Shown here: positions 1-64,000 of the stretch, one piece after another
How the letters are laid out: the number at the start of each line of letters is the position of its first letter
Position numbering within the stretch: the stretch's first letter is position 1
Assembly (NCBI GenBank): GCA_965227515.1
Contig: CBDDFZ010000001.1
Coordinates: 3,776,001 to 3,840,000 of the forward strand
Length of the DNA stretch: 64,000 nt
Direction: 5' to 3'
Source of the DNA: Alphaproteobacteria bacterium
GTDB lineage: Bacteria > Pseudomonadota > Alphaproteobacteria > CALKHQ01
Program-made: the position numbers and the translations under genes
Notes under the pieces: generated by a model
What the model was told of the DNA's origin: nothing
Database searches by the model: none
What the model saw: the letters and a program-made list of their open reading frames with translations, nothing else

Positions 1-2182
1 CCGCCATTCCGGCGTCCGCAACGTCGAACACCGCCATCCCGGCGCGCTCCTGCACGAAGTCGCCGGGCGCCGCGCCATTGCCCGCGGGTGCGGCAATAAC
101 CTGGGCGGACAGGCCCGCCGGTCGGCTCGCGTAGATCTCGGGCACGAGCTGGTAGGCATCGAGCCGGTGGGCCTGCATCTCCGCGATGATCCGGAATGTG
201 ACCAGCCGGGCCTCGTAGTCCCGGATGCTGCGCGCCAGCCGGGCGGCGCCGGGCAGATCGTCGCCTTCCGCCATGACCAGGGCGACATCCCCCCGGGCCC
301 GGTCGCGCAGGCCGTCGTCGTCAATCTCCTCGGTCGCGGCGATGGCCTCGCCATAGTCGCCGCGATCCGCCAGCACCCGGGCAATGGCGGCCTTGACCTG
401 ATCGACAGCCCCGCCCATCGCCCCGGATCCTTGCAGGCGTGCCGACAACGCTTCGAGCGCCGCCATGTCGCCGCGGTCGACGTGCACGTCGAGGATTGGC
501 TCGATGGCGAATTGCACCTGATCGGTGGACGCAATATCGATGACGGCGTCGGTCCGCTCTTCCAACAGCTCCTCGAATTCCGCGCCGCCCTGCACACGCC
601 CGATTTCCATCATGGCGCGGGCCCGCTCTTCCTCGTCGACGATCCGCTCCACGTAGGACGTCGCAGCCGCCACGTCGCCGCTGCGAGCCAGCCCGACGGC
701 AATCGTGCGCAGGGCCTGATCCAGGTAGGTGCCGGTGAGATCGGGCCTGAGGTCGATCAACGCGCGCGCGTCGTCCAGGCGATCCATTTCCGCCATGCGC
801 TTGGCGATGGGCCCCAAGGCACGGGTGCGGATCTCCGCATCGATGGCCGGGTCGTCGATCAGCAACGCCCATTCCAGGGCCTGGCTGACGTCGTCCAGTT
901 CGGCCAGCCGCTTCGCCAAGTCCGCGATGGCGCGAGGACGGCCTTCGGCCTCACTGATCTCGGTCAGAATCTCGGCGGCGCGGTCGGTCTGGTCGAGCTG
1001 GGCGGCGCGCCCGGTCACCAGCATCAGCGCGCTGCCGTCGTCCTCATCGAGCAGGCCGCGCGCGATCGCCTCGGCCCGGTCCAGCGCTTCGATCAATGCT
1101 TCCGGATATTCGGCATCGCGATAGGCGGCGGCAACGTCGAGCCACACATTGATGGTGTTGCGGGTCGGCTCCATCAGGCGGGCCGCGTATTCAGCGTCGG
1201 CCGGCAGGTCGGCGGACAGGGCCCGTTCGGCGGAATATTGGAGCCAGTCACTCCGCAGGGAAGAATCGGCGATGGCGCGCGCCACCAGCCGGGCGGTGGC
1301 ATGGTCGCCCATATCGGTCGAGAGGCGCGACACGGATTCCAGCAGCGGCGTGCGCAGGTCGGTCAGGCTGACCTCAATGGCGGCGGCATATTGGAATGCA
1401 CGCTCCATGTCCGCCTGCGACAGCGCTTCGGCGGACAGTTCGGCCAGGCGCTCGTTGTCGAATTCGGGGGCTTCGTATGCGCCCACGGCGGGCAACTCCG
1501 GCACCTCGCCCCACCGATGCAATGCCGAGATCGCCCACGCCCGCATGATGGTGGCTTCGTACGCGGGCGCATTGATGCCCTGGAGCAGCGCAAAGACCTC
1601 CTCGGGCGCCAGCATGTCGCTGAGCGCCGCGGCGTCGGCAATCCGTGCGCGAAGGGACGCCCCCTCCTCCGACGGATCGACCAGGACTGCGACGTCGACC
1701 GCCGCGCGAAACAGATCGCCGGCGGCCCAACTGTCGCCCTGGGCATTGAGGCACTGTGCGACGCCTATCAACGCTTCCAGGCGATAGGCCGCCGAGGCGG
1801 TGTCGTCCTGTACCGCACGGTCCGAAACGGCCTGCAGCCAGTCACCGTCCTCCGGCGTCACCAGCGCGGACCGCTCATCCCCCATGTTGCAGGCCGTCGC
1901 GGCAAAGCCGATGGTCCAGCGCAGCACATCGTCGTCGAGGGGAGCGTCGGCGCCGTTGGGCAGCGCGCCCGCGATCAGACCACGATACGCATCGGCACGT
2001 TCCGCATCGGACCCGTCCAGCAGAACGGCCATCGTTTCCGGCGAAACAGGTTCGGCCCCCTGGACGGCCCCGGCCGCGCCAATGGCGGCGGCCAGCATGA
2101 CCGGCAGGGCGAGCCGGTGCGCGGCGCCTCGGCCCGGGCCACGCCGCTCTGCTATTGCGCTCATTGAGTTGCTGAAGGTCAC
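1..2182 (-). CDS. Large secreted alpha-helical repeat (TPR-like) protein, 3' end outside window; candidate AlgK-analogous scaffold
   Basis: Missing from the ORF track because no stop lies in the window. GTG at 2182 overlaps the manC TGA and follows GGAGGT. Hand translation of both ends gives a signal-like segment (LALPVMLAAAIGAAGAVQG) and helical repeats (YGEAIATAEEIDDDGLRDRARGDVA). The + ORF 167..2167 is its antisense shadow. Confidence 0.75.
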   Translation of the reverse strand, partial: MTFSNSMSAIAERRGPGRGAAHRLALPVMLAAAIGAAGAVQGAEPVSPETMAVLLDGSDAERADAYRGLIAGALPNGADAPLDDDVLRWTIGFAATACNMGDERSALVTPEDGDWLQAVSDRAVQDDTASAAYRLEALIGVAQCLNAQGDSWAAGDLFRAAVDVAVLVDPSEEGASLRARIADAAALSDMLAPEEVFALLQGINAPAYEATIMRAWAISALHRWGEVPELPAVGAYEAPEFDNERLAELSAEALSQADMERAFQYAAAIEVSLTDLRTPLLESVSRLSTDMGDHATARLVARAIADSSLRSDWLQYSAERALSADLPADAEYAARLMEPTRNTINVWLDVAAAYRDAEYPEALIEALDRAEAIARGLLDEDDGSALMLVTGRAAQLDQTDRAAEILTEISEAEGRPRAIADLAKRLAELDDVSQALEWALLIDDPAIDAEIRTRALGPIAKRMAEMDRLDDARALIDLRPDLTGTYLDQALRTIAVGLARSGDVAAATSYVERIVDEEERARAMMEIGRVQGGAEFEELLEERTDAVIDIASTDQVQFAIEPILDVHVDRGDMAALEALSARLQGSGAMGGAVDQVKAAIARVLADRGDYGEAIAATEEIDDDGLRDRARGDVALVMAEGDDLPGAARLARSIRDYEARLVTFRIIAEMQAHRLDAYQLVPEIYASRPAGLSAQVIAAPAGNGAAPGDFVQERAGMAVFDVADAGMA

Positions 2183-3360
2183 GAGAAGTTACCTCCGACC
2201 GATGAATGGGATTGCAATATCGCCTCCACGCCCTGGTTCTCGGGCGCAGGGTCCTGGGCCGGTCTCGCAGCCGCCGGTGGCGGCGCTGCCGACCGCCCGT
2301 CGCGCTCTTTCAGCAACGCTTGGACCTGCTTCACGTTCTCCGACTGGTGCCGGTCGCAGATCAGCAGCGCGCCATTGGCTTCGACGACCACGATGTCGCT
2401 GACGCCGACCACGGCCACGGTCATGTCGCTGCGGACAAGATTGTTTCGGGCCTCGACGAACAGGCTGTCCGCCCCGCCATGATTGCCCTCGCCGGACTTT
2501 TCGCTGATCTCCCAGATCGAGCCCCAGGACCCGATGTCGGACCAATCGGCCGAGAGCGGCACCACCACCGCGTTGCGCGTCGGCTCCATCACCGCATAGT
2601 CGATGGAGATGGCCGGGCACTCCTCGAACCTGGCCGACGGGTAGAACCTGCCGGAGTGATAGCGGCCGGTCTTGAAGCTTCGATGCGTGTTGTCGAACAC
2701 GTCCTCGGCGTACTGGCCGAGCTCGTTCAGATAGGTATCGGCGGCAAACAGGAACATGCCGCTGTTCCAGTAGTACTGACCGGACTCCACATAGGCCGTC
2801 GCGTTCTCCAGCGCGGGCTTCTCGCGGAAGCCCGCCACCCGATACATCTTGGAGTAGCCGTCAACCTGCACGCCGCGGCGAATGTAGCCGTAGCCCGTGT
2901 GCGGCGTGGTCGGCTCTATACCGAACGTCACCAGGCTGCCTTCGGCGGCCGCGTGCGCCGCATCGCGCACCGCGATGATCAGCGGCTCCAGCTCGCCGAT
3001 ATGATGGTCGGACGGCAACACCCACATCAGGCTGTTGCCCCGGTCCCGCCGCAGCCAGCGCGCGGCAAGTGCGATGCCGGGAGCGGTATTGCGGCCTGTG
3101 GGCTCCGCGATGATGCAAGCCGGCTCGATGTTGACTTCCGCCAGCTGTTCGGCGACCCGCGCCACATGTTCGGCATTGGTGACCAGTACCGGCGCGCTGC
3201 CGGTCACCGCCATCGCGCGCAGCACCGTCATCTGAAGCAGCGAGTGCTTGCTGTGCAGCCGGTGAAACTGCTTGGGCATGGCGTCGGTGGACAGGGGCCA
3301 CAGGCGCTTGCCTCCCCCCCCGCATAGGATCACCGGACAGATATTGTTCAATGGCAGCAT
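2179..3360 (-). CDS. manC: Mannose-1-phosphate guanylyltransferase (ManC/AlgA GMP domain only)
   Basis: Motifs PVILCGGGGKRLWPLS, PKQF, EPTGRNTAP, YGYI, FREKP, WNSGMF, SIDYAVME, WSDIGSW. Start may be 3414. Confidence 0.92.
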   Translation of the reverse strand: MLPLNNICPVILCGGGGKRLWPLSTDAMPKQFHRLHSKHSLLQMTVLRAMAVTGSAPVLVTNAEHVARVAEQLAEVNIEPACIIAEPTGRNTAPGIALAARWLRRDRGNSLMWVLPSDHHIGELEPLIIAVRDAAHAAAEGSLVTFGIEPTTPHTGYGYIRRGVQVDGYSKMYRVAGFREKPALENATAYVESGQYYWNSGMFLFAADTYLNELGQYAEDVFDNTHRSFKTGRYHSGRFYPSARFEECPAISIDYAVMEPTRNAVVVPLSADWSDIGSWGSIWEISEKSGEGNHGGADSLFVEARNNLVRSDMTVAVVGVSDIVVVEANGALLICDRHQSENVKQVQALLKERDGRSAAPPPAAARPAQDPAPENQGVEAILQSHSSVGGNFS

Positions 3361-3433
3361 CAGGTTTCTCGCAAGTGCTCGGTCATAGGTACTGTCGGGC
3401 AAGCGCGCCGGCACGTCGCCGGCACGGCATCCG

Positions 3434-4552
3434 CTATGACTGGTCCCCGCCGGCGAAGATCTGGCCGAGCCAACTCTCGCCGAACGTATCGATGGTTATG
3501 GCGACCGGCCGGCCGATCCATTCCAGCGGAATGTCCTCGGCGGTGCGCACTGTCACCTCGGCCGACACCACGGCCTTCGGGTCCAGGATCGGCTGGCCGA
3601 TTTCGGAAAGCTGGCGACGCATGTCGACCTTGGCGACCAAGCCCCACATGTTCTGGCCCGTGGCCGGGAATGTGAGCAGCACCTCCATCCCCTCCTGCAG
3701 TCGCAGCGCGCTGTCGTAGGGCACCAGGGCCGAGACCCGGGTTGCGGCGTCCAGCGGCGCCAGCAGGAACAGATTGGCGTCCACCCCGACCTGGCTGTCA
3801 TCGGTGACAAGCACATCGACGATACGGCAGGCGCAGGGGCTTTCCACGAAGTATGCCGAACCGCCCGGGGTGGTGACGGTGGCCAGCAGGTCGCCCGGCG
3901 CGACCGTTTCCTCGCCGGCGGCCTGGCTGAAGACCACGCGCCCGCCTTGGGGAGCCGCGATCTGAATGAGGTCGGACGTCACCACCGCGCTGTGCGCGGA
4001 GATGAGAAACGAGCGTTCGTAGATGCTCATCGCCACCAGCGCCAGGATGGCCAGCGCCGCGACCGAGAGCACCACCGGCATCAGGCGGCGGCTGCGCTTC
4101 TGGCGCGCGCTTTCCCGGGCGGTGGGTGCCGGCACGTCGAGCTTGGCCCCGGAATCCGCCCTCTGCATGAGGTTGAGCACGTCGTTGACGTGAACGATCT
4201 CGCCAGCCACGTGGGCGCGGACCATGTACTGCAGGATTGAGGCCTGGCTGGCCGACTGGTCCACCAGCCGGCATCCCATGCGGCCGGTCTCGGGCGACCG
4301 GTAGCAGACCTCGAACCTGACCTTGACGTCCATGTCGAAGTCGTCGAAAGGCAGGATCAGCCGGCCCGAATAACTGTTGCCGACCGACAGTGTCAGGCTC
4401 TCGGCCTGCACCGCGAAACCGCCGACAGACCAGTCGAGGATGTGATACCTCTGGCCGCCGATATCTATCGAGAGCGGAATCTGCAGCCGCGCGAACTGAC
4501 GCTGGCGCTCAGACTCATGAACAATGGCGGGTGTTTTCGTTACAGCATTCAC
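3434..4552 (-). CDS. alg44: Alg44-like c-di-GMP-binding PilZ / membrane-fusion co-polymerase
   Basis: IVHESERQRQFAR (RxxxR) and DWSVGG (DxSxxG) PilZ motifs, one TM helix, HlyD-like SPCAC segment; directly downstream of alg8. Confidence 0.88.
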   Translation of the reverse strand: MNAVTKTPAIVHESERQRQFARLQIPLSIDIGGQRYHILDWSVGGFAVQAESLTLSVGNSYSGRLILPFDDFDMDVKVRFEVCYRSPETGRMGCRLVDQSASQASILQYMVRAHVAGEIVHVNDVLNLMQRADSGAKLDVPAPTARESARQKRSRRLMPVVLSVAALAILALVAMSIYERSFLISAHSAVVTSDLIQIAAPQGGRVVFSQAAGEETVAPGDLLATVTTPGGSAYFVESPCACRIVDVLVTDDSQVGVDANLFLLAPLDAATRVSALVPYDSALRLQEGMEVLLTFPATGQNMWGLVAKVDMRRQLSEIGQPILDPKAVVSAEVTVRTAEDIPLEWIGRPVAITIDTFGESWLGQIFAGGDQS

Positions 4553-4555
4553 GAT

Positions 4556-6085
4556 TCATGATCCCAGCTTGGCGGTCCAGAACCCGAGATCGGGCAGTTC
4601 CAGGACGTTGATGAAAATTGCGACGGCGATGATGAGGCAGGCGAACGACATGGCCTGCAGGGCGACGGCCGACTGGCGCAGCCGACGTTCCCGGCTGCTC
4701 GACAGGCCTCGATTGAGCGTCGTTTTCTGTCGGGTCCATTTCTGGCGATCGAGCTGGAAGATGACGCTCGACTTCACGAGAGAGCCGACGATCTGGTTGT
4801 AGTAGAGGAGGAAGGGATAGGTGGCCGATACGTGCCGGCGCGCCGTCAGCAAGCTGAGGGTGAGCACGTATCGGGTCAGCCCGATCCAGCAGAGGTAATA
4901 GATCCAGGCGTACGGTGTGATGAACAACGTGGCCAGGATCGCGCCGATTGGCCCGACCATGGTGGTCCAGATCGACACGCGCTGGTCGACGATGCACCAC
5001 CAGGTGAACAGCCCCATCCGCCGCGGGCCCAGCGCAATGGCGCGCGCGTTGGTGCGCAGCATGTTGCCGAACCAGCGCCGCATCAGCATGACCGAAGCCT
5101 TGGTGAACTTCGGGTGCGGCGGCGATTCCACCGTCAGCACCTGGGCGTCCGGGATGTAGAGCATCTCGTAGCCGTTCTTCAGCATCCAGTACCACGACGA
5201 TTTGTCGTCGCCGGTCAGGAACCGGAAGCGCCCCAGGCGCCAGTGATCGATCCAGTCCAGCTCGACCTGGGAGATGAACGACGGATCGGTCAGCAGCTCG
5301 CCGCGGAACATCGACATGCGGCCGGTCAGCGTGAGCACGCGCCTGGAGAGCCCCACCGACGACATGGCGATGTGGCGCTGCGCGAACCGCATCGAGTACC
5401 AGTTGCGGAATATTCCAGCGCCCTCGACCGAGCAGAACTCGTCGGTCGTCAACGCGCCGACGTTCTTCCGCAACCGGAAGAACGGCACGCACTTCGACAG
5501 CAGACCGGGCATCAGCAGGCTGTCGCCATCGATGACGGCTGCAATGAAGCCGGCCGGCGGATTGTCGCGCGAGATCGCGCGGAAGGCGCAGGCCAGGCCG
5601 TCGCGCTTGCCTGAGCCCTTGATGCGAACCACCATCAGCTTGACGTGCTCCGGTGGATTGCAGGACTGGAAGAGCTGCTTGATGACGCGCTCGTCAGACA
5701 TTTCGACGATGGAGGCGACGATCGTGGTCGGCGCCCCGTATCGCGCGGCCTCCTCGATCACCGAGCGGTAGACGGCCAGCGTCGTGTCGGTGGAGATCCT
5801 GAAGCTGGTGACCAGTAGGTAGAGATGACTGGGCCGGGCGGCATCCCCCAACGCGTCGGCCTGGCGGCGCCAGCGCGGGAACACCACAAGCCGGTAGATC
5901 AGCGAGCGCACGAAGTGCACGCCGCCCCAGCCATAGCGCCAAACGCCGATGGCCCCGATGATGAACAGAAACTGCGCGGCATCGGGGTCCAGCAGCACTG
6001 GCGGAAGCTGCAGAATCGCAAGCGCCAGGACTGCCACGTAGAGAACGTGGCCCAGCAATGACGGTCGGCTACCTGCCTGTTCCAT
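4556..6085 (-). CDS. alg8: Alg8-like GT2 mannuronan synthase
   Basis: IGVWRYGWG, LVTSFRI, GKRDGLA, IDGDS, TLTGRMSMFR, HWRLGRFRFLTGDDKSSW and RRWFGNMLR match Alg8 motifs. Confidence 0.93.
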   Translation of the reverse strand: MEQAGSRPSLLGHVLYVAVLALAILQLPPVLLDPDAAQFLFIIGAIGVWRYGWGGVHFVRSLIYRLVVFPRWRRQADALGDAARPSHLYLLVTSFRISTDTTLAVYRSVIEEAARYGAPTTIVASIVEMSDERVIKQLFQSCNPPEHVKLMVVRIKGSGKRDGLACAFRAISRDNPPAGFIAAVIDGDSLLMPGLLSKCVPFFRLRKNVGALTTDEFCSVEGAGIFRNWYSMRFAQRHIAMSSVGLSRRVLTLTGRMSMFRGELLTDPSFISQVELDWIDHWRLGRFRFLTGDDKSSWYWMLKNGYEMLYIPDAQVLTVESPPHPKFTKASVMLMRRWFGNMLRTNARAIALGPRRMGLFTWWCIVDQRVSIWTTMVGPIGAILATLFITPYAWIYYLCWIGLTRYVLTLSLLTARRHVSATYPFLLYYNQIVGSLVKSSVIFQLDRQKWTRQKTTLNRGLSSSRERRLRQSAVALQAMSFACLIIAVAIFINVLELPDLGFWTAKLGS

Positions 6086-6130
6086 GTTTCGCCTCGCCCT
6101 GATGCGAACCTTCCTCGTCGCCTCGTCGCC

Positions 6131-7414
6131 CTACCAGCAAATCCCCTGGTAACGGTCGGAGCTCATCATCTGCGGGTCGATCCGCACCAGGTCGACCAAG
6201 TCGACGTTCTCCTCGGTGCGCGACAGCGCCGAGCGGAACGCCGGGGCGCCGTTGCCGATGATGATCAGTTCGGCGTGGTCGTAGATGTCCTCGATCTGAT
6301 CGGCCATGTAGCCGGCCAGCCCGTTCAAGCGCGTCTTGTCGGTCGAGTAGTACTCGTCGTAGATCTTGAGGTGGTAGCCGAGGCCGATCAGACGCTCCGC
6401 CAGTGTGACCAGCGGGCTTTCGCGAAGGTCGTCGGTGCCCGACTTGAAGGTCAGGCCCAGAAGGCCGACCCGATTGCGGCCGGAATCCTTGACCAGGTCG
6501 ACCGCGCGCTCGATCTGATGATCGTTCGCGCTCAAGAGCGCGTCGAAGACCGGGGTCTGCACGCCGTTGCGCCGCCCGAGCGCCACCAGAGCCCGCAGAT
6601 CCTTGGGCAGGCACGATCCGCCAAAGGCGAAACCGGGCTTCAGATACGCCGGCGAGATGTTCAGCCGATCGTCCTTGCACAGGATGTCCATGACCTGGTG
6701 GCTGTCGATGCCGACCGATCGACAGAGGTTCCCCATCTCGTTGGCGAACGTCACCTTGGTCGCATGCCAGGCATTGTTGGCGTACTTGACCGCCTCCGCG
6801 GTCTGGATGTCGGTCGTGACCTCCAGTGCCGAGAGTCGGCTGTTCAGCTCGTGCAGACGGTTGCGGGTGATCGCATCGCGCACTCCAAACAACGAGATCG
6901 CGGGATCGTAGAAATCCTTGATCGCCGTGCTCTCGCGGAGGAATTCGGGATAAAGCGCGATGCCAAACCCCTCGCCCGCAACCATGCCGGCTTCCTGCTC
7001 CAGCGCCGGGATGATCGTGCCGGCCATCGACCCCGGCAGCATCGTGCTACGGATCACGACCGAGTAGAACCGATTGAGCCCCTTCACCGCCGCGCCGATC
7101 TGGCGGGCGACCGTAGCGACATACTTCAGATCTACGTCGCCCTGCCCATCGCTGGGTGTGCCGACGCAGACAAAACACAGCTCAGTTGCCTTGATCGCCT
7201 CATCCGACGACATCGTTGCCGAAAGACGGCCGGCACGCACATTGTCGGCGACCAGTTCATCAAGACCGGCTTCGCCAATGGGTGCCCACCCGTCGTTGAT
7301 CGCATCGACCTTTCGCGAGTCGATGTCGACGAGCACCACCGTGTGGCCCTGATCGGCCAGGCAGGCCGCGCTGACCGTTCCCACATAACCGGCACCGAAT
7401 ATGGCTACCTGCAT
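6131..7414 (-). CDS. algD: GDP-mannose 6-dehydrogenase
   Basis: GAGYVG Rossmann motif, CVGTPS, PEFLRESTAIKDF, catalytic GGSCLPKD, FKSGTDDLRESP and C-terminal GICW typical of AlgD. Confidence 0.93.
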   Translation of the reverse strand: MQVAIFGAGYVGTVSAACLADQGHTVVLVDIDSRKVDAINDGWAPIGEAGLDELVADNVRAGRLSATMSSDEAIKATELCFVCVGTPSDGQGDVDLKYVATVARQIGAAVKGLNRFYSVVIRSTMLPGSMAGTIIPALEQEAGMVAGEGFGIALYPEFLRESTAIKDFYDPAISLFGVRDAITRNRLHELNSRLSALEVTTDIQTAEAVKYANNAWHATKVTFANEMGNLCRSVGIDSHQVMDILCKDDRLNISPAYLKPGFAFGGSCLPKDLRALVALGRRNGVQTPVFDALLSANDHQIERAVDLVKDSGRNRVGLLGLTFKSGTDDLRESPLVTLAERLIGLGYHLKIYDEYYSTDKTRLNGLAGYMADQIEDIYDHAELIIIGNGAPAFRSALSRTEENVDLVDLVRIDPQMMSSDRYQGICW

Positions 7415-8242
7415 ATTATCCCCCTTGAAGGATTCGTGACGTTCGGTTTGTCGACCCGGTGCGGCTGCCGAGCGCCGCTACGACGCTCTCCGACCAGATC
7501 GCTTCTGCCTGCAAAGCCAGTTCGGGCTTTCCGTTAAGCTGTTGGCCCGGCGGTTCCGTTTGCCCCGCTGCGCACCGACATCACACGCATTACGATAGTT
7601 TCATATCGAGCGGCCGGCGTGCCTGCACAGCGCTGGAATCTACTCTCACGGCCGTTGTGGAAGCCTGAGACTGGCGTATTTGTTCGCACGTGCACAAAAA
7701 AGCGGCGACACGTGCACGGGCCTGAACACCAGAGAAACAGAGGGTTTGAGTGCCTCCTGGCGTGTTAAGGAAAGGACATATTGCAAATTTTTTAACTTGA
7801 TCGGCGATCACACCGATTTGATCAACTTGATAACATAGGTTTATTTGGCTTTGACAAAGAGGCCCATCGCCCCACATACAAACATATGTTTGAGTAGTGT
7901 TACTCAGTTGAGTATTGCTGCGCTCATCGATAAAGTACCCAGTATATGGTCGGTCACCCGGATGGATGACCAATCCCGGCGCCGAGCGATTTCGCAGTTG
8001 CGAGAGGCGCCGGGCCATTGAGAGCCGACAGGGCGCGTATATGCGCCAGGGCCAAGGTCGGCCAAAATCGACGGGGAAATGAACAGGGGTGTGACGTAGG
8101 ACGAACACAATTAGCTGCCACTGAATGCGTACCATCATGCTGCACAGGACGGGTGCGGTAGGGGGTGCGAGCTTGTGTGCCTGGACTCTGCCCTGGCGTC
8201 ACAAGATCGGCTTGGCTAATTGGACCTTGGAACGGGGGAACA

Positions 8243-22854: not shown

Positions 22855-23333
22855 ACCACGACGCCTACCCCAACCGCTACCTGCGCGACATTCTGCAAAA
22901 GGTGCGCACCATCGCCATGGTGGGCGCCAGCCCGAACTGGAACCGGCCCAGCTATTTCGCCATGAAGTACCTGCAGCACAAGGGATTCCGGGTGATCCCG
23001 GTCAACCCGCGCGCGGCGGGCGAGGAGATCCTGGGCGAGAAGGTCTATGCCGACCTGGCCGACGTCCCCGGGCACATAGACATGGTCGACATCTTCCGCA
23101 ACTCGGAGGCGGCGGGCCCGATCACCGACGCGGCGATCGAAATAGGCGCCGACGTGGTGTGGATGCAGCTTGGCGTGCGCAACGACGCGGCGGCGGCGCG
23201 GGCCGAGGCCGCCGGCCTAGAAGTCGTGATGGACCGCTGCCCGAAGATCGAGTTCGCGCGCCTGCACGGTGAGCTGGGCTGGAACGGCATGAACTCGCGC
23301 GTCATTTCGTCGAAACGCCGCAAGCTGGTGTGA
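22851..23333 (+). CDS. CoA-binding protein (YccU-like)
   Basis: IAMVGAS..RPSY, IPVNP, DMVDIFR, VWMQLG, VMDRCPKIE. GTG overlaps the upstream stop. Confidence 0.9.
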   Translation: MNHDAYPNRYLRDILQKVRTIAMVGASPNWNRPSYFAMKYLQHKGFRVIPVNPRAAGEEILGEKVYADLADVPGHIDMVDIFRNSEAAGPITDAAIEIGADVVWMQLGVRNDAAAARAEAAGLEVVMDRCPKIEFARLHGELGWNGMNSRVISSKRRKLV

Positions 23334-23363
23334 GTTGATGCCATTTGCCAACTGCCTTTTTCT

Positions 23364-23482
23364 GTCATGCGCGGACTTGATCCGCGCATCCACGCGGTTG
23401 ATGACAATTGCTGGCATTGCCGTGTTCCTGCAATGCCCACGTGGATACCCGGGTCTCGGCTTTCAGCCGGCCCGGGCATGAC
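23364..23482. repeat. REP/RPE-like palindromic element
   Basis: gtcatgcgcggacttgatccgcgcatccac...gtggatacccggg...cccgggcatgac nested inverted repeats. Confidence 0.75.
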
Positions 23483-23544
23483 GTTCTAGTGGTTGTTTCG
23501 GCGAGCCTTGCCGGCTGGAGCCGAGTTGCCGACAGAGAGTGACC

Positions 23545-24858
23545 ATGACCGACAGCAAGAACCCCGGTTTCAACACACTGGCGCTGCACGCCGGGGCCGC
23601 GCCGGACCCGACCACGGGCGCGCGCAGTGTGCCGATCTACCAGTCGACCTCGTTCGTGTTCGACGACGTGGACCACGCTGCCTCGCTGTTCAACCTGCAG
23701 ACCGTGGGCTTCATCTATTCGCGGCTGACCAACCCCACGGTCGCGGCACTGGAGGAGCGAGTCGCGGCACTGGAGGACGGTCGCGGCGCCACCGCCACGT
23801 CGTCCGGCCACGCCGCCCAGATATTGGCGCTTTTCCCGCTGATGCACCCGGGCGACCACATCGTCGCCTCCAATAAGCTCTATGGCGGTTCGCTGAATCA
23901 GATGGGCCACAGCTACAAGAAGTTCGGCTGGTCGACCACGTTTGTGGACCCTGACAGCGCCGATAACTTCAAGGCCGCGATCGCCGACACCACCAAGGCG
24001 ATCTTCATCGAAAGCCTGGCCAACCCCGGCGGCGTGGTGGTCGACATCGAGGCGGTGGCCCAGGTGGCGCACGATGCCGGCATTCCGCTGATCGTGGACA
24101 ACACGCTGGCGACCCCTGCCCTTTGTCGTCCGTTCGAATGGGGCGCGGATGTGGTGGTGCACTCGACCACCAAATTCCTGTCCGGCAGCGGCACCGCGGT
24201 CGGCGGCGCGGTGGTCGACAGCGGCACATTCGACTGGGCGCAAAACGACAAGTTCCCCAGCCTGTCGACGCCGGCGCCGGAGTATCACGGCCTCACCTTC
24301 ACCGAGACGTTCGGGGACATGGCTTACACCATCTATGGGCATGCCATCGGGTTGCGCGACCTGGGGCCGAGCCAGGCGCCGATGAATGCGTGGCTGACCA
24401 TGCTGGGCATCGAGACCCTGTCACTGCGCATGGAGCGGCAGTGCGCCAACGCGCTGAAAGTGGCGGAATACCTGGAGGGGCACCCGGCGGTCGAGTGGGT
24501 GTTCTATGCCGGCTTGCCGTCCAACCCCTACCACGCGCTGGCGCAGAAGTACCTGAAGGGCGGCGCGGGCGCGGTCTTCACCTTCGGCCTGAAGGGCGGG
24601 TTCGACGCCGGCATCGCCATGGTGGAGAACTGCGAGTTGCTGTCCCACCTCGCCAACATCGGCGATTCGAAGTCGCTGATCATTCACCCGGCCTCGACCA
24701 CCCACCGCCAGCTCGACGAGGCGGCGCAGATCGCCTGCGGCGCCGGGCCGGATGTGGTGCGGCTGTCGATCGGCATCGAGGACGTCGCCGACATTATCGC
24801 CGACCTGGAACAGGCGCTGGCCGCGGCCCAGGAAACCACGCGCGCGGCAGCCGAATAA
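23545..24858 (+). CDS. metY: O-acetylhomoserine aminocarboxypropyltransferase (MetY family)
   Basis: [23 protein letters not shown] (PLP lysine), [17 protein letters not shown]. Confidence 0.9.
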
Positions 24859-25044
24859 CGTTCAGGCAATCAAGTTCCGCCTGGGGGCTGGCCTGCAACC
24901 GAGTACGCCCGCTAGCTGAACATTAATTTCGCCCCGCATTTTCAATTGATCTTGCCGGCGCATAGCTGACAGAATGCGTCGTTCGATTGCAGTGATTTTA
25001 TTCGCTCAGAAGTTCATTTTTCATTCATTTAAAGGAGGGCGGCG

Positions 25045-26220
25045 GTGTCAGAGCCCGACTCAAGCCTAACCGAGCGCACGCAGTCTCGGTCAAGTCTCGA
25101 ACTCCTCGGCGCATATGTCGATAACGCATCCAACCACACCCCGCGCTGGCTCAACTGGCTGTTTGTCCTCGTGCCCATCGCCACGATTGCGGGGGCCGCA
25201 TACGTTTTCAATGAGACAGTTGAAGTCGGCAGAATCGAACTTCGCTTTATTGGCGAGGTTTTCGGCACGATCGAGCCGACCGAAATTCCGCCCAAGGTCG
25301 TCCACGGAATCTACGGCTGGGGCCTGGCATTTGTCGCCATGTGCGTCGCCGGACTGGCCACCACTGCCATCTGCCTGCGCGTTATCTACTGTCAGGCAGA
25401 GGGACAACGCACCGCGATATTTGCTGTCGCCACTGTGCTGGGCTTGGCTGTCTTCGCGGCGGTCGTAAGCCTCGACTACTATCCAAAAAACGCTATCAGT
25501 GGCGCGCTGTTCGATGGAACCGTGGGGCATTTGCCGTCTTGCGGCCCGGACGATGAGACCGCCGACGACGTCCACGCATGTTTCAACGACGCGGGCGAGC
25601 GGGTCTCGATCGGCAACACCGGTTCCAGCATCAAGGACATCCTGCCCTGGGGCAGCGCAGTGCTGTGCATGGCCGCCGTGCTCGCATTCATCGCTGCCGC
25701 ATCGACCATCGCGACCGGCCGCCCACCCAAGCCACCGAGCACCGAGCACGACCAATCAAAGGTCGCCAGCGGTTGGAGCGACTTGCGCCTCATCGTCATG
25801 ATGACCGCGGCAACTTTGGTCCTGTCCTATCTGACATCCCATCTCCTGCTCAATCTGGGCGCCGAAACCGTGGCGGCCGCCGAAATTCCGGCGGACGACC
25901 CCAACGCGGTTACGGGCGATAGCGAAGATGCGGAGGGGGGCGAAGAACTGGAGGAAAACGCCTCGCCTTCGCCCCATGACCTGACGGTCGCGCGGTATGC
26001 CGAGTTGCAGAGCGCAGCGGAACTCTACTGGACAGTCATCACGACCGTCGCCCTTGCATCGATTTACTTTCCCGTGGCCGCAATACTGTGGATCAGGACC
26101 ACGCCGGATAAGCGAAAACCCGACCAGAACCCTTGGATGGCGGTCGCGAAGCAGATTCTTACCATCGTCAGTCCGCTGCTCGCTGGCCTCGTGGTCAATC
26201 TCTCAGAGTTGTTTGCCTGA
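25045..26220 (+). CDS. Hypothetical multi-pass membrane protein
   Basis: 391-aa ORF after AAGGAGG, about 7 hydrophobic segments and acidic loops. Confidence 0.75.
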   Translation: MSEPDSSLTERTQSRSSLELLGAYVDNASNHTPRWLNWLFVLVPIATIAGAAYVFNETVEVGRIELRFIGEVFGTIEPTEIPPKVVHGIYGWGLAFVAMCVAGLATTAICLRVIYCQAEGQRTAIFAVATVLGLAVFAAVVSLDYYPKNAISGALFDGTVGHLPSCGPDDETADDVHACFNDAGERVSIGNTGSSIKDILPWGSAVLCMAAVLAFIAAASTIATGRPPKPPSTEHDQSKVASGWSDLRLIVMMTAATLVLSYLTSHLLLNLGAETVAAAEIPADDPNAVTGDSEDAEGGEELEENASPSPHDLTVARYAELQSAAELYWTVITTVALASIYFPVAAILWIRTTPDKRKPDQNPWMAVAKQILTIVSPLLAGLVVNLSELFA

Positions 26221-41349: not shown

Positions 41350-43230
41350 TTAAGCGGAGTTGCCGGCCCAACGGGGCACCGGCAACAACTCCTCGATGAG
41401 ATCGGGCTGGCGGATGCCACCCTCCGTGTTCTGCGGCTGACCCTGGCGGGACGGCCGCAGGCTGGGGAACGAGACAACCCGGTCCAGCATATCCGCCATC
41501 GCATGCACGCTCGCCGGATCGGCGGCGTCCTGGGGAATGCCGTCCAGGGCGGCGGCGTCCGCCGCGCTGATCCCCGGACAACCCGCCAGGGACCCATGGC
41601 CGCAGCAATAGCGGTCCGCGGCTTCGATCTCGTCGTCGCTGAACCCCAGCGCGGCCAGCATGTCGAAGCCGTAGTCGTCGATCTGCACCGGATCCAGGCC
41701 CAGGTTCTCGGTGCATTCCTGCCGCCCGAGGACCCATTGGTTGAAGATGTGGCGCAGGGTTGTCGTCTCCGGGATCGCCGCTTCCAGCCGCTGGCGGCCA
41801 TCGGCGCTCAGGCCACGGGCGCGCAGTTGCTGTGGGTCGAGCGCCGGCGCGCCGCGCAAGGTGCCGTGCCCGACCAGGTGATCGACCGCGCCGGACAGCG
41901 CCGCCGGGCCATAGCCCAGGGCACTCAGTCCATCCAACAGGGCCGGCGCCACCATGCGCACGAAGCGCTCGTCGGTCACCTGATCCTGCACCACCAGGTC
42001 GCGTACGGGGTCGATGCCTGCCGAGCGCGCGTCCAACAGCGGCGCCAGCGGCCCCAGCGCCACGACGCCGGTGAAGGTGGAGTTGCGGAAGCCCGACCGC
42101 GCGCCCAGGCCCAGCGCACGCCGCCACGTCGCGGCATGGGCTGCTGCCAACACCGCGGCGAGATCGCTTGCCAAGGCCGGCCTGACCACGTCGGCCAGCG
42201 TTGCGATGGCGGCATCGCCGGCGCTGCGCTGCTCCGAGAGCTGGCGCAACACGCCCCGGCGGGCGCCGGCGAACGAGGGGCAAGTGCCCGCCTCCGCCGC
42301 CATTTCCGCCGATGCCGCGGCAACCCCGCCGGTGACCAGGCTCATGATGGCGGTGGCAAACGCACGCCCGCCCGCGCTGTCGTAGGGCAGGCCATGCGCC
42401 ATCAGCACCGTCGCCAGATTGGCCACGTTCACCAGCAGCGGCCGCTGGTTGTAGGTCGCCGCCGCCACATCGGCATTCCGATAGAGCCTGGAGGCCAGGA
42501 TGATCTCGGCCGCGACCGCCGCCACATGAACCGCCCGGCGCAGGCGATCCGGCTCCAGCACCCGGTCGGCGTTGAGGAACGCGGCAAGGTTCAGCGTGAC
42601 CACGGTGGGCTCGGCCTCGGCCGAGACGCTGCCGGCCCCGCCATTGCGACGCTGCAGGCTGACGACATTGCCGTCGCTGTTCAGGTCGTCGACCGGCATC
42701 GCCAGCGGCGCGATGAAATCGGGCGCGTCAGCGCCGCGCACGGCCTGCCCGGTACGGAAGTCCACGCCGACGGCGGTGTTCAGGGACCTGTCCGCCAGGG
42801 CATATGCACGCCGCAGCCCCGCCTTGGCCCACACATCCACCGAAGGCGACAGCGCCCGGGCCTCGAGCAACGCCTGCAGGTCGGCCAGGAAGGCATCGGC
42901 ATCCTCGGCCTGGTCGAACAGGCCAAGCTGCCAGCCCCAATAGGCGACGTGGCGCGCCACCCGTCCGCAGGCGCGGCGCGCATCGAAGTCGTCGCACGGC
43001 TGCGGGTCGGCGGGGCGCCACAGCGATGCCGGCACCTCGTCGTCGGGGGAAAGCACGTCATGGGTGTAGCGGTCGACCGCGCCGGTCAGCCGGGCCAGTG
43101 CCGCGGCCGCTGCCTCGGGCCAGCAATGGGGCACGACGACGGCAACCTCGGTATCCTCCACCATGGCCGACGTCACGCGCACGTCGGCTGCATGATCATC
43201 CAGATTGGCGGCGGTCGGCTTGAATCTCAT
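41350..43230 (-). CDS. Degenerate class II ribonucleotide reductase (NrdJ)-like protein
   Basis: NrdJ-like blocks YWGWQLGLF, ANLATVLMAHGLPYDS, GFRNS, HLVGHG, HIFNQWVLG, LGFSDDEIEAA..CG. The NPCxE catalytic loop is absent. Divergent from NDUFA12, where nrdJ is usually found. Confidence 0.75.
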   Translation of the reverse strand: MRFKPTAANLDDHAADVRVTSAMVEDTEVAVVVPHCWPEAAAAALARLTGAVDRYTHDVLSPDDEVPASLWRPADPQPCDDFDARRACGRVARHVAYWGWQLGLFDQAEDADAFLADLQALLEARALSPSVDVWAKAGLRRAYALADRSLNTAVGVDFRTGQAVRGADAPDFIAPLAMPVDDLNSDGNVVSLQRRNGGAGSVSAEAEPTVVTLNLAAFLNADRVLEPDRLRRAVHVAAVAAEIILASRLYRNADVAAATYNQRPLLVNVANLATVLMAHGLPYDSAGGRAFATAIMSLVTGGVAAASAEMAAEAGTCPSFAGARRGVLRQLSEQRSAGDAAIATLADVVRPALASDLAAVLAAAHAATWRRALGLGARSGFRNSTFTGVVALGPLAPLLDARSAGIDPVRDLVVQDQVTDERFVRMVAPALLDGLSALGYGPAALSGAVDHLVGHGTLRGAPALDPQQLRARGLSADGRQRLEAAIPETTTLRHIFNQWVLGRQECTENLGLDPVQIDDYGFDMLAALGFSDDEIEAADRYCCGHGSLAGCPGISAADAAALDGIPQDAADPASVHAMADMLDRVVSFPSLRPSRQGQPQNTEGGIRQPDLIEELLPVPRWAGNSA

Positions 43231-58704: not shown

Positions 58705-58769
58705 ACCTTCAGATCCCCTCCTGATGAACACTGCCTCAAACGCCCGGCCTCGCGCCGGGCGCTTTTTTT
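58705..58769 (+). ncRNA. Putative anti-SD sRNA, copy 2
   Basis: Same 22-nt head and terminator. Confidence 0.7.
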
Positions 58770-58818
58770 GGCGCGACGGCAAGGCCGCGACCGGCGCCAT
58801 TCGCCCGCCGGACCGGCC

Positions 58819-58860
58819 AGTGACCGCCGTCACATGGAATGCGGGCCCCTGCCCCCATAT
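58819..58860 (+). promoter_or_regulatory. CRP-type box and -10 for copy 3
   Basis: aGTGA-CCGCCG-TCACA at -41.5; CCCCATAT. Confidence 0.7.
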
Positions 58861-58867
58861 CCCGAAG

Positions 58868-58933
58868 ACCTTCAGATCCCCTCCTGATGCGTACAGCCTC
58901 AAACGCCCGGCCTTGTGCCGGGCGTCTTTTTTT
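58868..58933 (+). ncRNA. Putative anti-SD sRNA, copy 3
   Basis: Same 22-nt head and terminator. Confidence 0.7.
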
Positions 58934-58981
58934 GCTCCGGTGGCGCGCGAACCAAAAAATTTCAACCGGAAGGTCGACTTG

Positions 58982-59626
58982 ATGAACAGAACAGGGCTGG
59001 CCATCGCCGCGAGCGTGCTGCTGTCGCCGGCAGCAGCCTGGGCTCAGGATCCCGTTCACTTCGCGCTGCCCGACGTCGGAACCGAAATCGAGTGGTCGGG
59101 GGGACTGGTCGCAGAGGTGACGGAGGTCGAGCCCGAGGATCGCGCCTACAAGATGGCGCTCTCCTATCCCAACAACTACCGCCAAGTGCAGAACGTGGTC
59201 GAAGGCCTGCAGACGAATGCGTTGTGGCTCTATAATGACAACGGCGACCTGATTTCCGAGAACAACACCATCTTCGACCGGGCGGCGCTGACCGGCTTCT
59301 GGCCGCTGACCCTGGATGCGCAGATTACATTCACCGGCACGGAGTTCACGGATGGCGGGCCCATGTCAGCCTGGGAGGCCACGCTGACGGTGGAAGCGTT
59401 CGAGACCGTGTTGACGCCGCTTGGCCTGGTCGATGCCGTGCGCGTGCGCCGCATCGACGAGCTGACCGCCCAGGCCAACGACGACCTGCCGATCGACAGT
59501 GTCGAGGCGGTGATTTGGTACGCACCGTCTGTCGGCATGACGGTCAGGGCCGAGGTCACCCACTACGATGGCGACCAGGTTGTGCAATCGATCAGCTTCG
59601 TGCCCGAGAGCATCACCCTGCCCTGA
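58982..59626 (+). CDS. Hypothetical secreted protein
   Basis: Signal peptide (AWA-Q), acidic beta-rich body, ETVLTPLG..A and WYAPSVG motifs. Confidence 0.8.
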   Translation: MNRTGLAIAASVLLSPAAAWAQDPVHFALPDVGTEIEWSGGLVAEVTEVEPEDRAYKMALSYPNNYRQVQNVVEGLQTNALWLYNDNGDLISENNTIFDRAALTGFWPLTLDAQITFTGTEFTDGGPMSAWEATLTVEAFETVLTPLGLVDAVRVRRIDELTAQANDDLPIDSVEAVIWYAPSVGMTVRAEVTHYDGDQVVQSISFVPESITLP

Positions 59627-60315: not shown

Positions 60316-61731
60316 TCAGCGCTCGCCGAACGCGGAGTTCAGCGCGTTGTAGACCGGCTTCACCATGTAGGAGAGCAGCGAGTGCTCGCCGATGTTGATC
60401 GAGACCTGGGCCTGCATGCCGGGCACGATCTCGTGGCGGTCGACGCCTTCGCCCACGCCGGTCTCGTCCAGCGCGATGATGGCCTTGTAGTAACTCTGGC
60501 CTTCCTCATCGACGAAGGTGGATGCCGAGACCCGCACCACCCTGCCCGGCACCATGCCGTAACGCGAGACGTCGAAGCCTTCGATAATGATCTCGGCGGT
60601 CTGGCCAACCGTAACGTAGCCAACGTCGCTCGGCTTCAGGCGCGCCTCGACCTCGAGCACGCCGTCGACCGGCACGATCTCGGCCACCGTCGCGCCCGGG
60701 GCCAGCACGCCGCCACCGCCGCCGATGGCGACCAGATTGATCACGCCGCGCACCGGTGCGCGGATGGCCAAGCGTTCGACGCGATCCTCGAAGCGGCGAA
60801 TGGACTCGTCGAGTTCCGCCAGTTCCGTGGCCACACGGCCAAGCTCATTGGCCGACTGGTTGCGCTGCGTCAGTTCCAGCTCGGTCTGCTGCTGACGGAT
60901 CTCTTCCACCCCCTGCATGGCGCTCAGGATGTTGCCGCGTGCCTCTTCCAACTCGCCGACGGTGCGGACATAGGCGCTTTCGACCTCGAGCCGGCGCGCG
61001 CGCGACCCCCAGCCCTGCGCTTCCAGTTGCTGCTGCATGGCCAATTGCCGGCCGACAACGTTGACCTGCTGTTCCAGGCTCTCGACGCGGCCTTCCAGTG
61101 TCTGGACCTCCAGTTCCCTTTGCGCCAGTTGGCTGTCCAGGATCGCGCTTTGACCATTCAGGCTGTCCACCCACAGCTCGTAGATGGCGATCTGGTCGAA
61201 CGCGATCTCCGGGTAGTCATGGATGAACGCGTCGAAGTCGGGCTCCAGCCCCATGCTCTGGGCACGCAGCCGCTCGACCTCCACCGAAAGTGCTGCGTGG
61301 CGCACCATCATCTGGTCCAGGTCGGCATTGTTGGCAACGGGGTTGAGCTGGGCCAGTGGCTGGCCGACCTCGACAAGGTCGCCCTCCTGCACCAGCACCG
61401 ACTGTACGATGCCGCCCTCCAGGTGCTGAACCGTCTGCACCTGGCCGGCCGGCACGACCGAGCCTGCGGCCACCGAGGTGGTCACGACGGGAACCACCGC
61501 CGACCACAGGGCACCGCCGATGATGAACAGGAAGATCGCCAGCACGGCGTAGAACCCGGCGCGAGGCGGCCCGGACTCCTCCAGCATGGTGGCGCTGGAC
61601 AGAAGCGTGAGCTGGCGGCGATTGCCGTCGCCGCCCTTGGTCATGGCCGCAGCCAGAATGTCGCCGCGGCGGCCGGTGTCCTGGCCGGCGGCGCGCAGGG
61701 CCAGTCCCGCTGCGTTGCTGTGCGCGGTCAT
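60316..61731 (-). CDS. HlyD-family type I secretion membrane fusion protein
   Basis: VQHLEGGIV, IRAPVRG, EIVP, PGMQAQVSI..G, YMVKP..AFGER. Confidence 0.93.
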   Translation of the reverse strand: MTAHSNAAGLALRAAGQDTGRRGDILAAAMTKGGDGNRRQLTLLSSATMLEESGPPRAGFYAVLAIFLFIIGGALWSAVVPVVTTSVAAGSVVPAGQVQTVQHLEGGIVQSVLVQEGDLVEVGQPLAQLNPVANNADLDQMMVRHAALSVEVERLRAQSMGLEPDFDAFIHDYPEIAFDQIAIYELWVDSLNGQSAILDSQLAQRELEVQTLEGRVESLEQQVNVVGRQLAMQQQLEAQGWGSRARRLEVESAYVRTVGELEEARGNILSAMQGVEEIRQQQTELELTQRNQSANELGRVATELAELDESIRRFEDRVERLAIRAPVRGVINLVAIGGGGGVLAPGATVAEIVPVDGVLEVEARLKPSDVGYVTVGQTAEIIIEGFDVSRYGMVPGRVVRVSASTFVDEEGQSYYKAIIALDETGVGEGVDRHEIVPGMQAQVSINIGEHSLLSYMVKPVYNALNSAFGER

Positions 61732-63893: not shown

Positions 63894-64000
63894 GACGCCG
63901 CCTGCACGGTCGGCGACGGCTGAACCGTCGCAGGCACCTGGCCGCTTTTCGCGGCCGGCCGCGGGGGCCCATCGGCTGCCGTCACCAGCTGGCCATTCAC
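63890..64000 (-). CDS. C-terminal fragment of the upstream gene, probably a second ABC transporter
   Basis: Open frame VNGQLVTAADG...VQAAS* with ATGA overlap onto the next start. Confidence 0.55.
   Translation of the reverse strand: MNGQLVTAADGPPRPAAKSGQVPATVQPSPTVQAAS

Follow-up and report, generated by a model that had tools for sequence, protein, structure and literature searches.

A predicted alginate biosynthesis operon of alphaproteobacterial type, with an AlgG-like epimerase joined to a helical-repeat solenoid

The 64,000-nt stretch of alphaproteobacterial DNA analysed here (contig CBDDFZ010000001.1, positions 3,776,001 to 3,840,000; ‘the window’, to which coordinates refer unless stated otherwise) carries at its left end, on the minus strand, five co-oriented open reading frames (ORFs), called by length and third-position GC content (GC3), in the order algD-alg8-alg44-manC-fifth gene. 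These genes are probably the first two-thirds, counted from the 5′ end, of an operon for alginate biosynthesis of the alphaproteobacterial kind. The five genes and their immediate neighbours, with the functions predicted for them, are as follows:

6131–7414, minus strand: algD, GDP-mannose 6-dehydrogenase, first gene of the operon (427 amino acids, aa)
4556–6085, minus strand: alg8, GT2 glycosyltransferase, catalytic subunit of mannuronan synthase (509 aa)
3434–4552, minus strand: alg44, PilZ receptor for cyclic di-GMP (c-di-GMP) with a periplasmic membrane-fusion-like domain, co-polymerase (372 aa)
2179–3414, minus strand: manC, mannose-1-phosphate guanylyltransferase without a phosphomannose isomerase (PMI) domain (411 aa)
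1–2182 (ORF 2–2182), minus strand: 5′ part of an epimerase-fusion gene, with a signal peptide and a solenoid resembling tetratricopeptide repeats (TPR); 727 of 1251 codons, open at the window start
7415–8243, no strand: spacer between algD and the regulator gene, likely promoter region, AT-rich at ~7760–7930 (from reading of the sequence)
8244–10522, plus strand: candidate regulator with PAS, H-box region, receiver and LuxR parts (from domain searches)
10907–13180, minus strand: secreted-type alginate lyase of family PL7 with RTX repeats (from domain and structure-sequence matches)

The gaps between the five ORFs, in operon order, are 45, 3, 19 and −4 nt (the last pair overlapping by 4 nt), and this tight spacing and overlap fit a single transcription unit. 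Their GC3 (0.83–0.88) falls in the range native to the window, where housekeeping genes, including those for ribosomal protein L13 and for ClpA/B-type and AccC-type proteins farther to the right, have values of 0.84–0.91; composition thus offers no hint of recent import. A first-pass annotation, made from the letters of the window, had described a tightly spaced, co-oriented algD-alg8-alg44 with intact motifs followed by manC and a large gene, and all five ORFs are indeed present.

AlgD had as its best solved relative the GDP-mannose 6-dehydrogenase of P. aeruginosa (1mfz, 403.3 bits, E 1.1e-119, aa 1–427 against 1–436), compared with 231 bits for the best UDP-glucose dehydrogenase structure. 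It contained the three UDPG_MGDP_dh Pfam domains, matched TIGR03026 at 367 bits, and was 42–45% identical to the protein encoded ahead of alg8 in Pseudomonas loci, the corresponding figure for L001, the closest of the related loci described below, being 59%. Alg8 matched Pfam Glyco_tranf_2_3 (GT2; 132.8 bits) and was 51–55% identical, over approximately aa 12–495, to Alg8 from loci of P. putida, P. fluorescens, P. nitroreducens and Metapseudomonas resinovorans; sequence search of the PDB gave no match and NCBIfam no model. Its top 120 database relatives were 54–76% identical, several of them carrying the IMG names ‘mannuronan synthase’ or ‘glycosyltransferase Alg8’. Strings shared in an Alg8 alignment were VTSFRI, GTGKRD, AVIDGD, LTGRMS, FLTGDDKSSW, VExPP, LMxRWxGNxLR and DQRxSxWT, with AVIDGD, FLTGDDKSSW, VExPP and LMxRWxGNxLR common to the window protein and P. 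putida Alg8; some of these strings probably correspond to the catalytic DxD and QxxRW-type motifs of GT2 synthases.

Alg8 and Alg44 are a textbook pair of binding partners. In the window Alg44, Pfam placed PilZ at aa 17–110 and HlyD_3 at aa 236–309, and a hydrophobic stretch at approximately aa 157–178, read by eye from the translation, is a putative membrane helix. Among PDB entries, residues 15–118 matched three crystal structures of the Alg44 PilZ domain and nothing else (4rt0, 4xrn and 4rt1; E 6e-13 to 4e-12), and P. putida Alg44 aligned with the window protein at full length (aa 30–389, 25% identity, 80 bits). Both PilZ motifs were kept, RxxxR as RQFAR and DxSxxG as DWSVGG, by which Alg44 is a predicted c-di-GMP receptor. 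ManC exceeded the cut-off of TIGR01479, the bifunctional GMP/PMI equivalog model (386.8 bits; cut-off 372.95), while matching only profile positions 1–349 of 467; with its Pfam domains, NTP_transferase and ManC_GMP_beta-helix, it is predicted to be a guanylyltransferase only. Its C-terminal 40 aa are Ala/Pro-rich. The placement of manC directly after alg44 recurs in L001, Zavarzinia, Microvirga and others.

The fifth gene runs off the window. A database protein of 1251 aa (P0125), from the 4,070,151-bp contig to which the window belongs, was 100% identical across 100% of the 727-aa window fragment, and it is through these identical first 727 aa that the AlgG-type domain, sitting beyond the window start, is tied to the window. 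P0125 carries Beta_helix and NosD domains, and its aa 821–1146 matched the AlgG mannuronan C5-epimerase structures 4nk6 and 4ozy (203 bits, E 8e-59), as well as 4ozz (~200 bits). The DPHD motif was kept, and the strings Y-R-x-N-x-x-Y-G-x-DPHD and KKHG-x-I-x-SREV aligned; the histidine of DPHD is named as the likely catalytic base of AlgG epimerases in a passage of a review (PMC4444821). The large helical-repeat gene of the first-pass annotation thus turns out to encode the front of an AlgG homologue, being only the N-terminal 58% of a 1251-aa AlgG-type fusion. The ‘non-canonical downstream machinery’ of that annotation is an overstatement: the fifth gene is a homologue of the canonical AlgG, and its product carries a TPR-like extension at the N-terminus. 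Taken together with the modelling below, these matches predict that the fifth gene encodes an AlgG-type C5-epimerase behind a TPR-like solenoid of ~650 aa.

Within the 727-aa fragment, no Pfam or NCBIfam family was matched, TPR and Sel1 sequence families included; the putative signal peptide was recognised by inspection of the translated sequence. The AlphaFold model of this fragment (alignment of 23 sequences; mean predicted local distance difference test score, pLDDT, 83.4; predicted template modelling score, pTM, 0.70) contained 36 helices, with a disordered, signal-peptide-like start followed by helical hairpins at aa 43–690. Foldseek comparison with the PDB returned superhelices of TPR or pentatricopeptide repeats (PPR), for example SKI3, Ctr9, TTC7B, IFT-A and a designed PPR protein. 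A language-model feature search gave weak agreement, with TPR clusters at 0.93 and a recognition value of 1668, below the threshold of 2300. A specific AlgK fold was considered for the solenoid and rejected, only generic TPR/PPR solenoids having been matched, at low template modelling (TM) scores.

The extension appears from sequence comparison to be old but fast-changing. A phmmer search of the 727-aa fragment against 1.84 billion representatives found 46 proteins at E ≤ 0.001 and only three at E ≤ 1e-30 (all collinear and 1209–1240 aa long), and this scarcity of close relatives suggests that the extension evolves fast. A four-sequence profile of the extension matched 33/41 long AlgG forms, one of which was a seed (E 1e-38 to 3e-7, with large compositional bias). 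Counted from the first in-frame start, ~750–840 residues precede the epimerase domain in most alphaproteobacterial loci (up to 1138), as against ~105–135 in Pseudomonas and Marinobacter; the extra N-terminal part of the window AlgG comes to ~800 residues. The Rhizobium sp. BG6 counterpart of the solenoid gave sub-threshold matches to TPR_12 and TPR_7.

Relatives of the operon were gathered by an Alg8-alignment scan of one-genome-per-species contigs, in which at least 590 stretches matched and at least 581 were confirmed; the best 80 were kept. By record title these comprised 48 Alphaproteobacteria, 29 Gammaproteobacteria, 2 Bdellovibrionia and 1 unclassified, the top Alg8 being 71% identical to that of the window, whose own genome was not among the 80. 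The alphaproteobacterial loci came from Microvirga (many species), Rhizobium, Allorhizobium, Devosia, Pseudochelatococcus, Chthonobacter, Zavarzinia, Asticcacaulis, Phenylobacterium, Sphingobium and Novosphingobium, and a tblastn search of plasmids added 14 records: nine Rhizobium chromids (including those of R. etli 8C-3, R. gallicum and R. grahamii), Loktanella (two), Tateyamaria, Jannaschia and Salipiger. Where annotated, these plasmid and chromid genes were named only ‘glycosyltransferase’. Going by the listed coordinates, at least 23 of these 80 loci show the order algD-alg8-alg44-manC. The lineage, which the first-pass annotation had thought unexpected, is not so: Alg8 within the same algD-alg8-alg44(-manC) order occurs in many Alphaproteobacteria, which supplied 48/80 of the best loci.

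In one of the Loktanella records (L. salsilacus plasmid plas1, L081), positions 9639–25278 encode in turn a response regulator, a sugar dehydrogenase, a GT2 enzyme, an Alg44-like protein, a nucleotidyltransferase, a 491-aa beta-helix protein, an MBOAT protein, three hypothetical proteins, AlgF and a large hypothetical protein; the record annotates none of these but AlgF as alginate-related. A 1,257,160-bp contig of one related genome (P0011, P0012, P0127 and P0131) apparently holds two copies of Alg8, 73% and 71% identical to that of the window, as well as a long AlgG and a Sel1 protein, which suggests a duplicated cluster or synthase.

The Alg8 tree (quick IQ-TREE search, 81 rows, midpoint root) placed the window as sister to L001 (Shimodaira–Hasegawa-like approximate likelihood-ratio test, SH-aLRT, 100), within a group of alphaproteobacterial metagenome-assembled genomes (MAGs). 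Hyphomicrobiales formed a clade (SH-aLRT 100), as did 28/29 gammaproteobacterial rows (SH-aLRT 100), the 29th lying on a long branch. A position of the GT2 protein outside the Alg8 clade had been named beforehand as evidence that would tell against an alginate-type operon; in this tree, which has no outgroup, it groups with the Alg8 rows.

For the 48 alphaproteobacterial and 29 gammaproteobacterial loci, genes lying no farther than ~10 kb from alg8 were tallied; some loci are shorter than this, so that absences are upper bounds. Numbers of loci with each feature were as follows:

AlgG-type domain: alphaproteobacterial 41/48, gammaproteobacterial 27/29
Over 400 residues preceding the AlgG domain: alphaproteobacterial 38/48, gammaproteobacterial 1/29
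Short AlgG form: alphaproteobacterial 3/48, gammaproteobacterial 26/29
Homologue of the L001 Sel1 protein: alphaproteobacterial 37/48, gammaproteobacterial 5/29
AlgK, P. putida type: alphaproteobacterial 7/48, gammaproteobacterial 26/29
AlgE porin: alphaproteobacterial 2/48, gammaproteobacterial 27/29
AlgX: alphaproteobacterial 14/48, gammaproteobacterial 26/29
AlgI: alphaproteobacterial 14/48, gammaproteobacterial 25/29
AlgF: alphaproteobacterial 8/48, gammaproteobacterial 4/29
PL5 lyase (Rhizobium L036 query): alphaproteobacterial 33/48, gammaproteobacterial 0/29
AlgL (P. putida query): alphaproteobacterial 10/48, gammaproteobacterial 21/29
PL7 lyase: alphaproteobacterial 13/48, gammaproteobacterial 0/29
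manC: alphaproteobacterial 28/48, gammaproteobacterial 1/29

The lone gammaproteobacterial locus with a long AlgG was L025, whose Alg8 is identical to a Pseudomonas row. Both PilZ motifs were found in 39/43 alphaproteobacterial and 28/28 gammaproteobacterial Alg44 homologues, the RxxxR pattern being a permissive one. An example from Rhizobium sp. BG6 reads algD-alg8-alg44-long AlgG (1246 aa)-PL5 lyase-Sel1 (992 aa)-106 aa-Sel1 (968 aa)-Sel1 (426 aa), and no porin family was found in this row. Short AlgG forms, with ~105–130 residues ahead of the domain, were also seen in five non-gammaproteobacterial loci (L012, L021, L072, L078 and L073), 4/5 of which had an AlgE-type porin match as well; across the best 80 loci, short AlgG went with AlgE and long AlgG went without it, a raw co-occurrence in which kinship is ignored.

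The alphaproteobacterial relatives carry large, all-helical Sel1 proteins downstream and are mostly without an AlgE-type porin. The Sel1 protein of L001 (752 aa) was modelled with 40 helices and no barrel (pLDDT 85.8), and Foldseek found it to resemble generic Sel1 proteins. The idea that it might be a hidden beta-barrel porin was rejected on this all-helical model, and that of a specific AlgK fold on its matching generic Sel1 solenoids only, at low TM-scores.

The operon may be set beside that of Pseudomonas (algD-8-44-K-E-G-X-L-I-J-F-A, known from P. aeruginosa and P. putida; here loci L060, L080, L024 and L064), with which it shares homologous AlgD, Alg8, Alg44 and AlgG-type domain, the algD-alg8-alg44 order and the PilZ c-di-GMP motifs. 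It differs in that Pseudomonas has a bifunctional algA at the operon end, whereas the window has a guanylyltransferase-only manC after alg44; in that Pseudomonas has an AlgK of ~490 aa and an AlgE porin, in contrast to the large Sel1 proteins of the alphaproteobacterial relatives, usually with no AlgE; and in that Pseudomonas has its PL5 lyase AlgL inside the operon, whereas an RTX-PL7 lyase adjoins the operon of the window. Neither AlgK nor AlgE was found in the window. The TPR part of PelB, BcsC, PgaA and AlgK is either fused to a beta-barrel porin or acts together with one. The window solenoid may be likened to these export scaffolds as a functional analogy only, a long periplasmic helical-repeat solenoid standing beside a polymer-modifying activity; unlike them, it is fused to an epimerase, and it gave neither a sequence match nor a specific fold match to them.

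The lyase gene is convergent with that of the regulator. Its 757-aa product has RTX repeats on both sides of the PL7 domain, Pfam finding Alginate_lyase2 at 186 bits (aa 285–512) and HemolysinCabind in eight stretches, and it matched the PL7 structures 5zu5 (E 4e-30), 4ozx, 2cws, 1uai and 1vav. The PL7 domain is therefore homologous to characterised alginate lyases, and lyase activity is predicted; the 13/48 alphaproteobacterial loci with a PL7 homologue have it less than 10 kb from alg8. Residues 597–753 resemble the R-modules of AlgE6 (2ml3, 2ml1), and no AlgE-type secreted epimerase was found in the window by domain search. The combination of a PL7 module with RTX-type calcium-binding modules, in a bacterium that also has an alg operon, has a parallel in AlyA3 of Azotobacter vinelandii, as described in part of the review cited above (PMC4444821); the RTX repeats of the window lyase flank both sides, unlike those of AlyA3, whose cyst-opening role is not transferable. 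A type I secretion pair lies 47 kb off on the minus strand (an HlyD-family protein, 60316–61731, and an ABC transporter, 61728–63998, at the window edge) and could be a candidate exporter of the lyase.

Between algD and the divergent regulator gene lies an AT-rich spacer of ~830 bp. A 182-aa ORF in it (7590–8138, minus strand) was rejected as a gene because of its low GC3 and want of any family. Scans of positions 1–14000 were uninformative (promoter-like sites, 5 observed and 2.9 ± 1.5 expected; terminator-like sites, 7 observed and 7.7 ± 3.2 expected); none of these sites lay in the region upstream of algD, which gave no sigma-70-like site. The longest ORF of the regulator starts at 8165, although the ATG at 8244 is the likelier start. 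Pfam identified PAS_10 (aa 61–165), Response_reg (aa 581–691) and GerE (aa 724–778), and NCBIfam a FixJ-type model at 166 bits, below cut-off, and a NahK/ErcS-like histidine-kinase H-box region (aa 317–469). A PAS_10/receiver/GerE protein is also divergent upstream of algD in L001, whereas other loci are without one. Judged by its position only, the PAS/receiver/LuxR protein is likely to be the candidate transcriptional regulator of alg. The terminator scan also flagged an inverted repeat with perfect 10-bp arms and a 3-nt loop (8359–8381, plus strand) inside the 5′ part of the regulator gene (‘...YSIDDAIL...’ codons), which may be chance.

Both the homologies and the differing gene order agree with what the first-pass annotation had proposed, a rearranged mannuronan/alginate operon of PilZ (c-di-GMP) type in an alphaproteobacterium. 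The locus belongs, as judged from its sequence, to a widespread and generically annotated alphaproteobacterial variant of the alginate system, with its activity predicted; its distinctive points are the solenoid-epimerase fusion, the usual want of an AlgE-type porin, a guanylyltransferase-only ManC in the operon and the adjoining RTX-PL7 lyase, and it makes no departure from known alginate chemistry. Our claim is a moderate one, since putative or atypical alginate clusters outside Pseudomonas have already been noted, in passages of the 2015 review (PMC4444821) and of a 2020 survey (Bundalovic-Torma et al., PMC7112194). The ‘atypical’ operons described in sections of that survey, rearranged and without algKE or algGXLIJF, from environmental and deep-sea bacteria, fit the alphaproteobacterial type seen here; its main text, in the sections consulted, mentions neither Alphaproteobacteria nor a TPR-AlgG fusion, the taxa being given in its S5 Fig. 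The review, in the part bearing on producers, gives Pseudomonas and Azotobacter as the only genera from which alginate has been isolated. Elsewhere, a passage in a study of a marine lyase (PMC11890756) mentions a Halomonas genome that carries alg8 and alg44, and the relevant portion of PMC12363192 mentions only algC, in Phaeobacter.

By homology, ManC would convert mannose-1-phosphate to GDP-mannose, AlgD would oxidise this to GDP-mannuronate, and Alg8 with its co-polymerase Alg44 would polymerise GDP-mannuronate to polymannuronate and move it across the inner membrane, polymerisation presumably being switched on by c-di-GMP binding at the PilZ domain of Alg44. In the periplasm, the 1251-aa protein may convert some mannuronate to guluronate through its AlgG-type beta-helix, with the ~650-aa solenoid as a built-in scaffold tethering the epimerase to the export path, a role that falls in Pseudomonas to separate TPR/Sel1 proteins like AlgK. 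The RTX-PL7 lyase, once secreted, might act on the polymer extracellularly, trimming or releasing it in the manner of Azotobacter AlyA3, and the divergent PAS/receiver/LuxR protein would probably control transcription.

Several results weigh against this account. The rarity of an AlgE-type porin near alg8 (just 2/48 alphaproteobacterial loci, against 27/29 gammaproteobacterial) leaves the export route unexplained. The O-acetylation genes are dispensable for polymer synthesis in Pseudomonas; here none of AlgI, AlgJ, AlgF and AlgX was found in the window, nor within 10 kb in L001. When the L001 Sel1 protein was used as a query against proteins, 0/15 matches came from the contig of the window; the window ends inside the epimerase gene, and of the operon downstream only the full-length epimerase P0125 was recovered. 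The PMI cupin/isomerase family was absent from ManC in the Pfam search, so that it does not qualify as a bifunctional PMI-GMP enzyme (AlgA). Foldseek TM-scores for the solenoid were low (0.1–0.35 on the query), and AlgK was not among the solenoid matches listed (ranks 1–50, with gaps). The Alg8 tree was a quick one and lacked a non-Alg8 outgroup, and in the open-access and bioRxiv literature searched, no experimental study of alginate in any alphaproteobacterium was found.

AlgG also has a structural role in Pseudomonas, and the cluster might make a polyuronide related to alginate but distinct from it, such as polymannuronate left unepimerised or modified in another way, with the AlgG-like domain being mainly structural or a lyase. 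Epimerases and lyases do have active-site features in common, AlgE7 performing both reactions (in a passage of PMC4444821), and the N-terminal extension and the absence of AlgE, AlgX, AlgI, AlgJ and AlgF from L001 show that the periplasmic apparatus is altered. However, DPHD and its flanking strings are kept, the enzymes of substrate supply are those for GDP-mannuronate, and a PL7 alginate lyase adjoins the operon, and we regard a different product as unlikely.

A little less probable again is that the cluster is a silent or incomplete inherited remnant, with no export for want of an encoded outer-membrane channel. The lack of an AlgE-type porin in 46/48 alphaproteobacterial loci, the barrel-free, all-helical model of the L001 Sel1 protein and the silence of the literature searched on alphaproteobacterial alginate are what such a remnant would predict, although a porin could be encoded elsewhere in the genome. 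Against decay, all five reading frames are open, their codon bias is native and their spacing coupled; the catalytic and PilZ motifs survive in the window, as do PilZ motifs in 39/43 of the alphaproteobacterial Alg44 homologues; and the cluster type is conserved over several orders, which argues for selection.

Recent acquisition of the operon from a gammaproteobacterial alginate producer, brought to mind by a system best known from Pseudomonas and Azotobacter and by the plasmid or chromid location of some Rhizobium and roseobacter copies, is very improbable given that the window Alg8 is sister to that of an alphaproteobacterial MAG among alphaproteobacterial rows and that 28/29 gammaproteobacterial rows form their own clade (SH-aLRT 100 in both cases), that GC3 equals that of the host genes, and that the gene order and long AlgG are of alphaproteobacterial type.

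A broader proposal can be made, as a tentative one that we think more apt to fail than to hold: that Alphaproteobacteria possess an alginate machine of their own, old and widespread, in which the scaffold is fused to the C5-epimerase and AlgK/AlgE are replaced by giant Sel1 proteins and another outer-membrane channel. Were it true, the organism of the window would rank as a true producer of alginate beyond Pseudomonas and Azotobacter, exporting it in a new way, and alginate-like polymers of soil, rhizosphere and marine Alphaproteobacteria would be far commoner than assumed; such clusters, if functional, would extend alginate producers to plant-associated and marine bacteria. The operon is conserved and looks intact across many Alphaproteobacteria, cultured Rhizobium, Microvirga, Devosia and Zavarzinia among them, and could, if functional, serve as a natural experiment on the construction of synthase-dependent systems, bearing on the coupling of modification to export and on what can stand in for a porin.

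The alphaproteobacterial host named in the first-pass annotation agrees with the 16S matches and with the neighbours of Alg8. The window contains a complete rRNA operon (14340–20099, minus strand) of the order 16S-tRNAIle-tRNAAla-23S-5S-tRNAMet(CAT), with 16S at 18600–20099, 23S at 14913–17730 and 5S at 14651–14765; it lies only ~1.2 kb from the RTX-PL7 lyase gene. Against a plasmid and chromid collection, in which 654 records matched, the best full-length 16S matches listed were Azospirillum chromids (89.7–90.4%), and one further record, outside the matches listed, fell in the 95–99% band. Together, 16S and Alg8 neighbours support an alphaproteobacterium with no close cultured relative among the matches listed.

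Elsewhere in the window, a 626-aa protein (41350–43230, minus strand) gave a partial match to the ribonucleotide reductase barrel (profile positions 232–444 of 523, 75 bits) and may be a short or divergent reductase-like protein. Two further well-biased ORFs, at 25045–26220 (plus strand, 391 aa) and 58724–59626 (plus strand, 300 aa), matched no Pfam family at E ≤ 1e-5.

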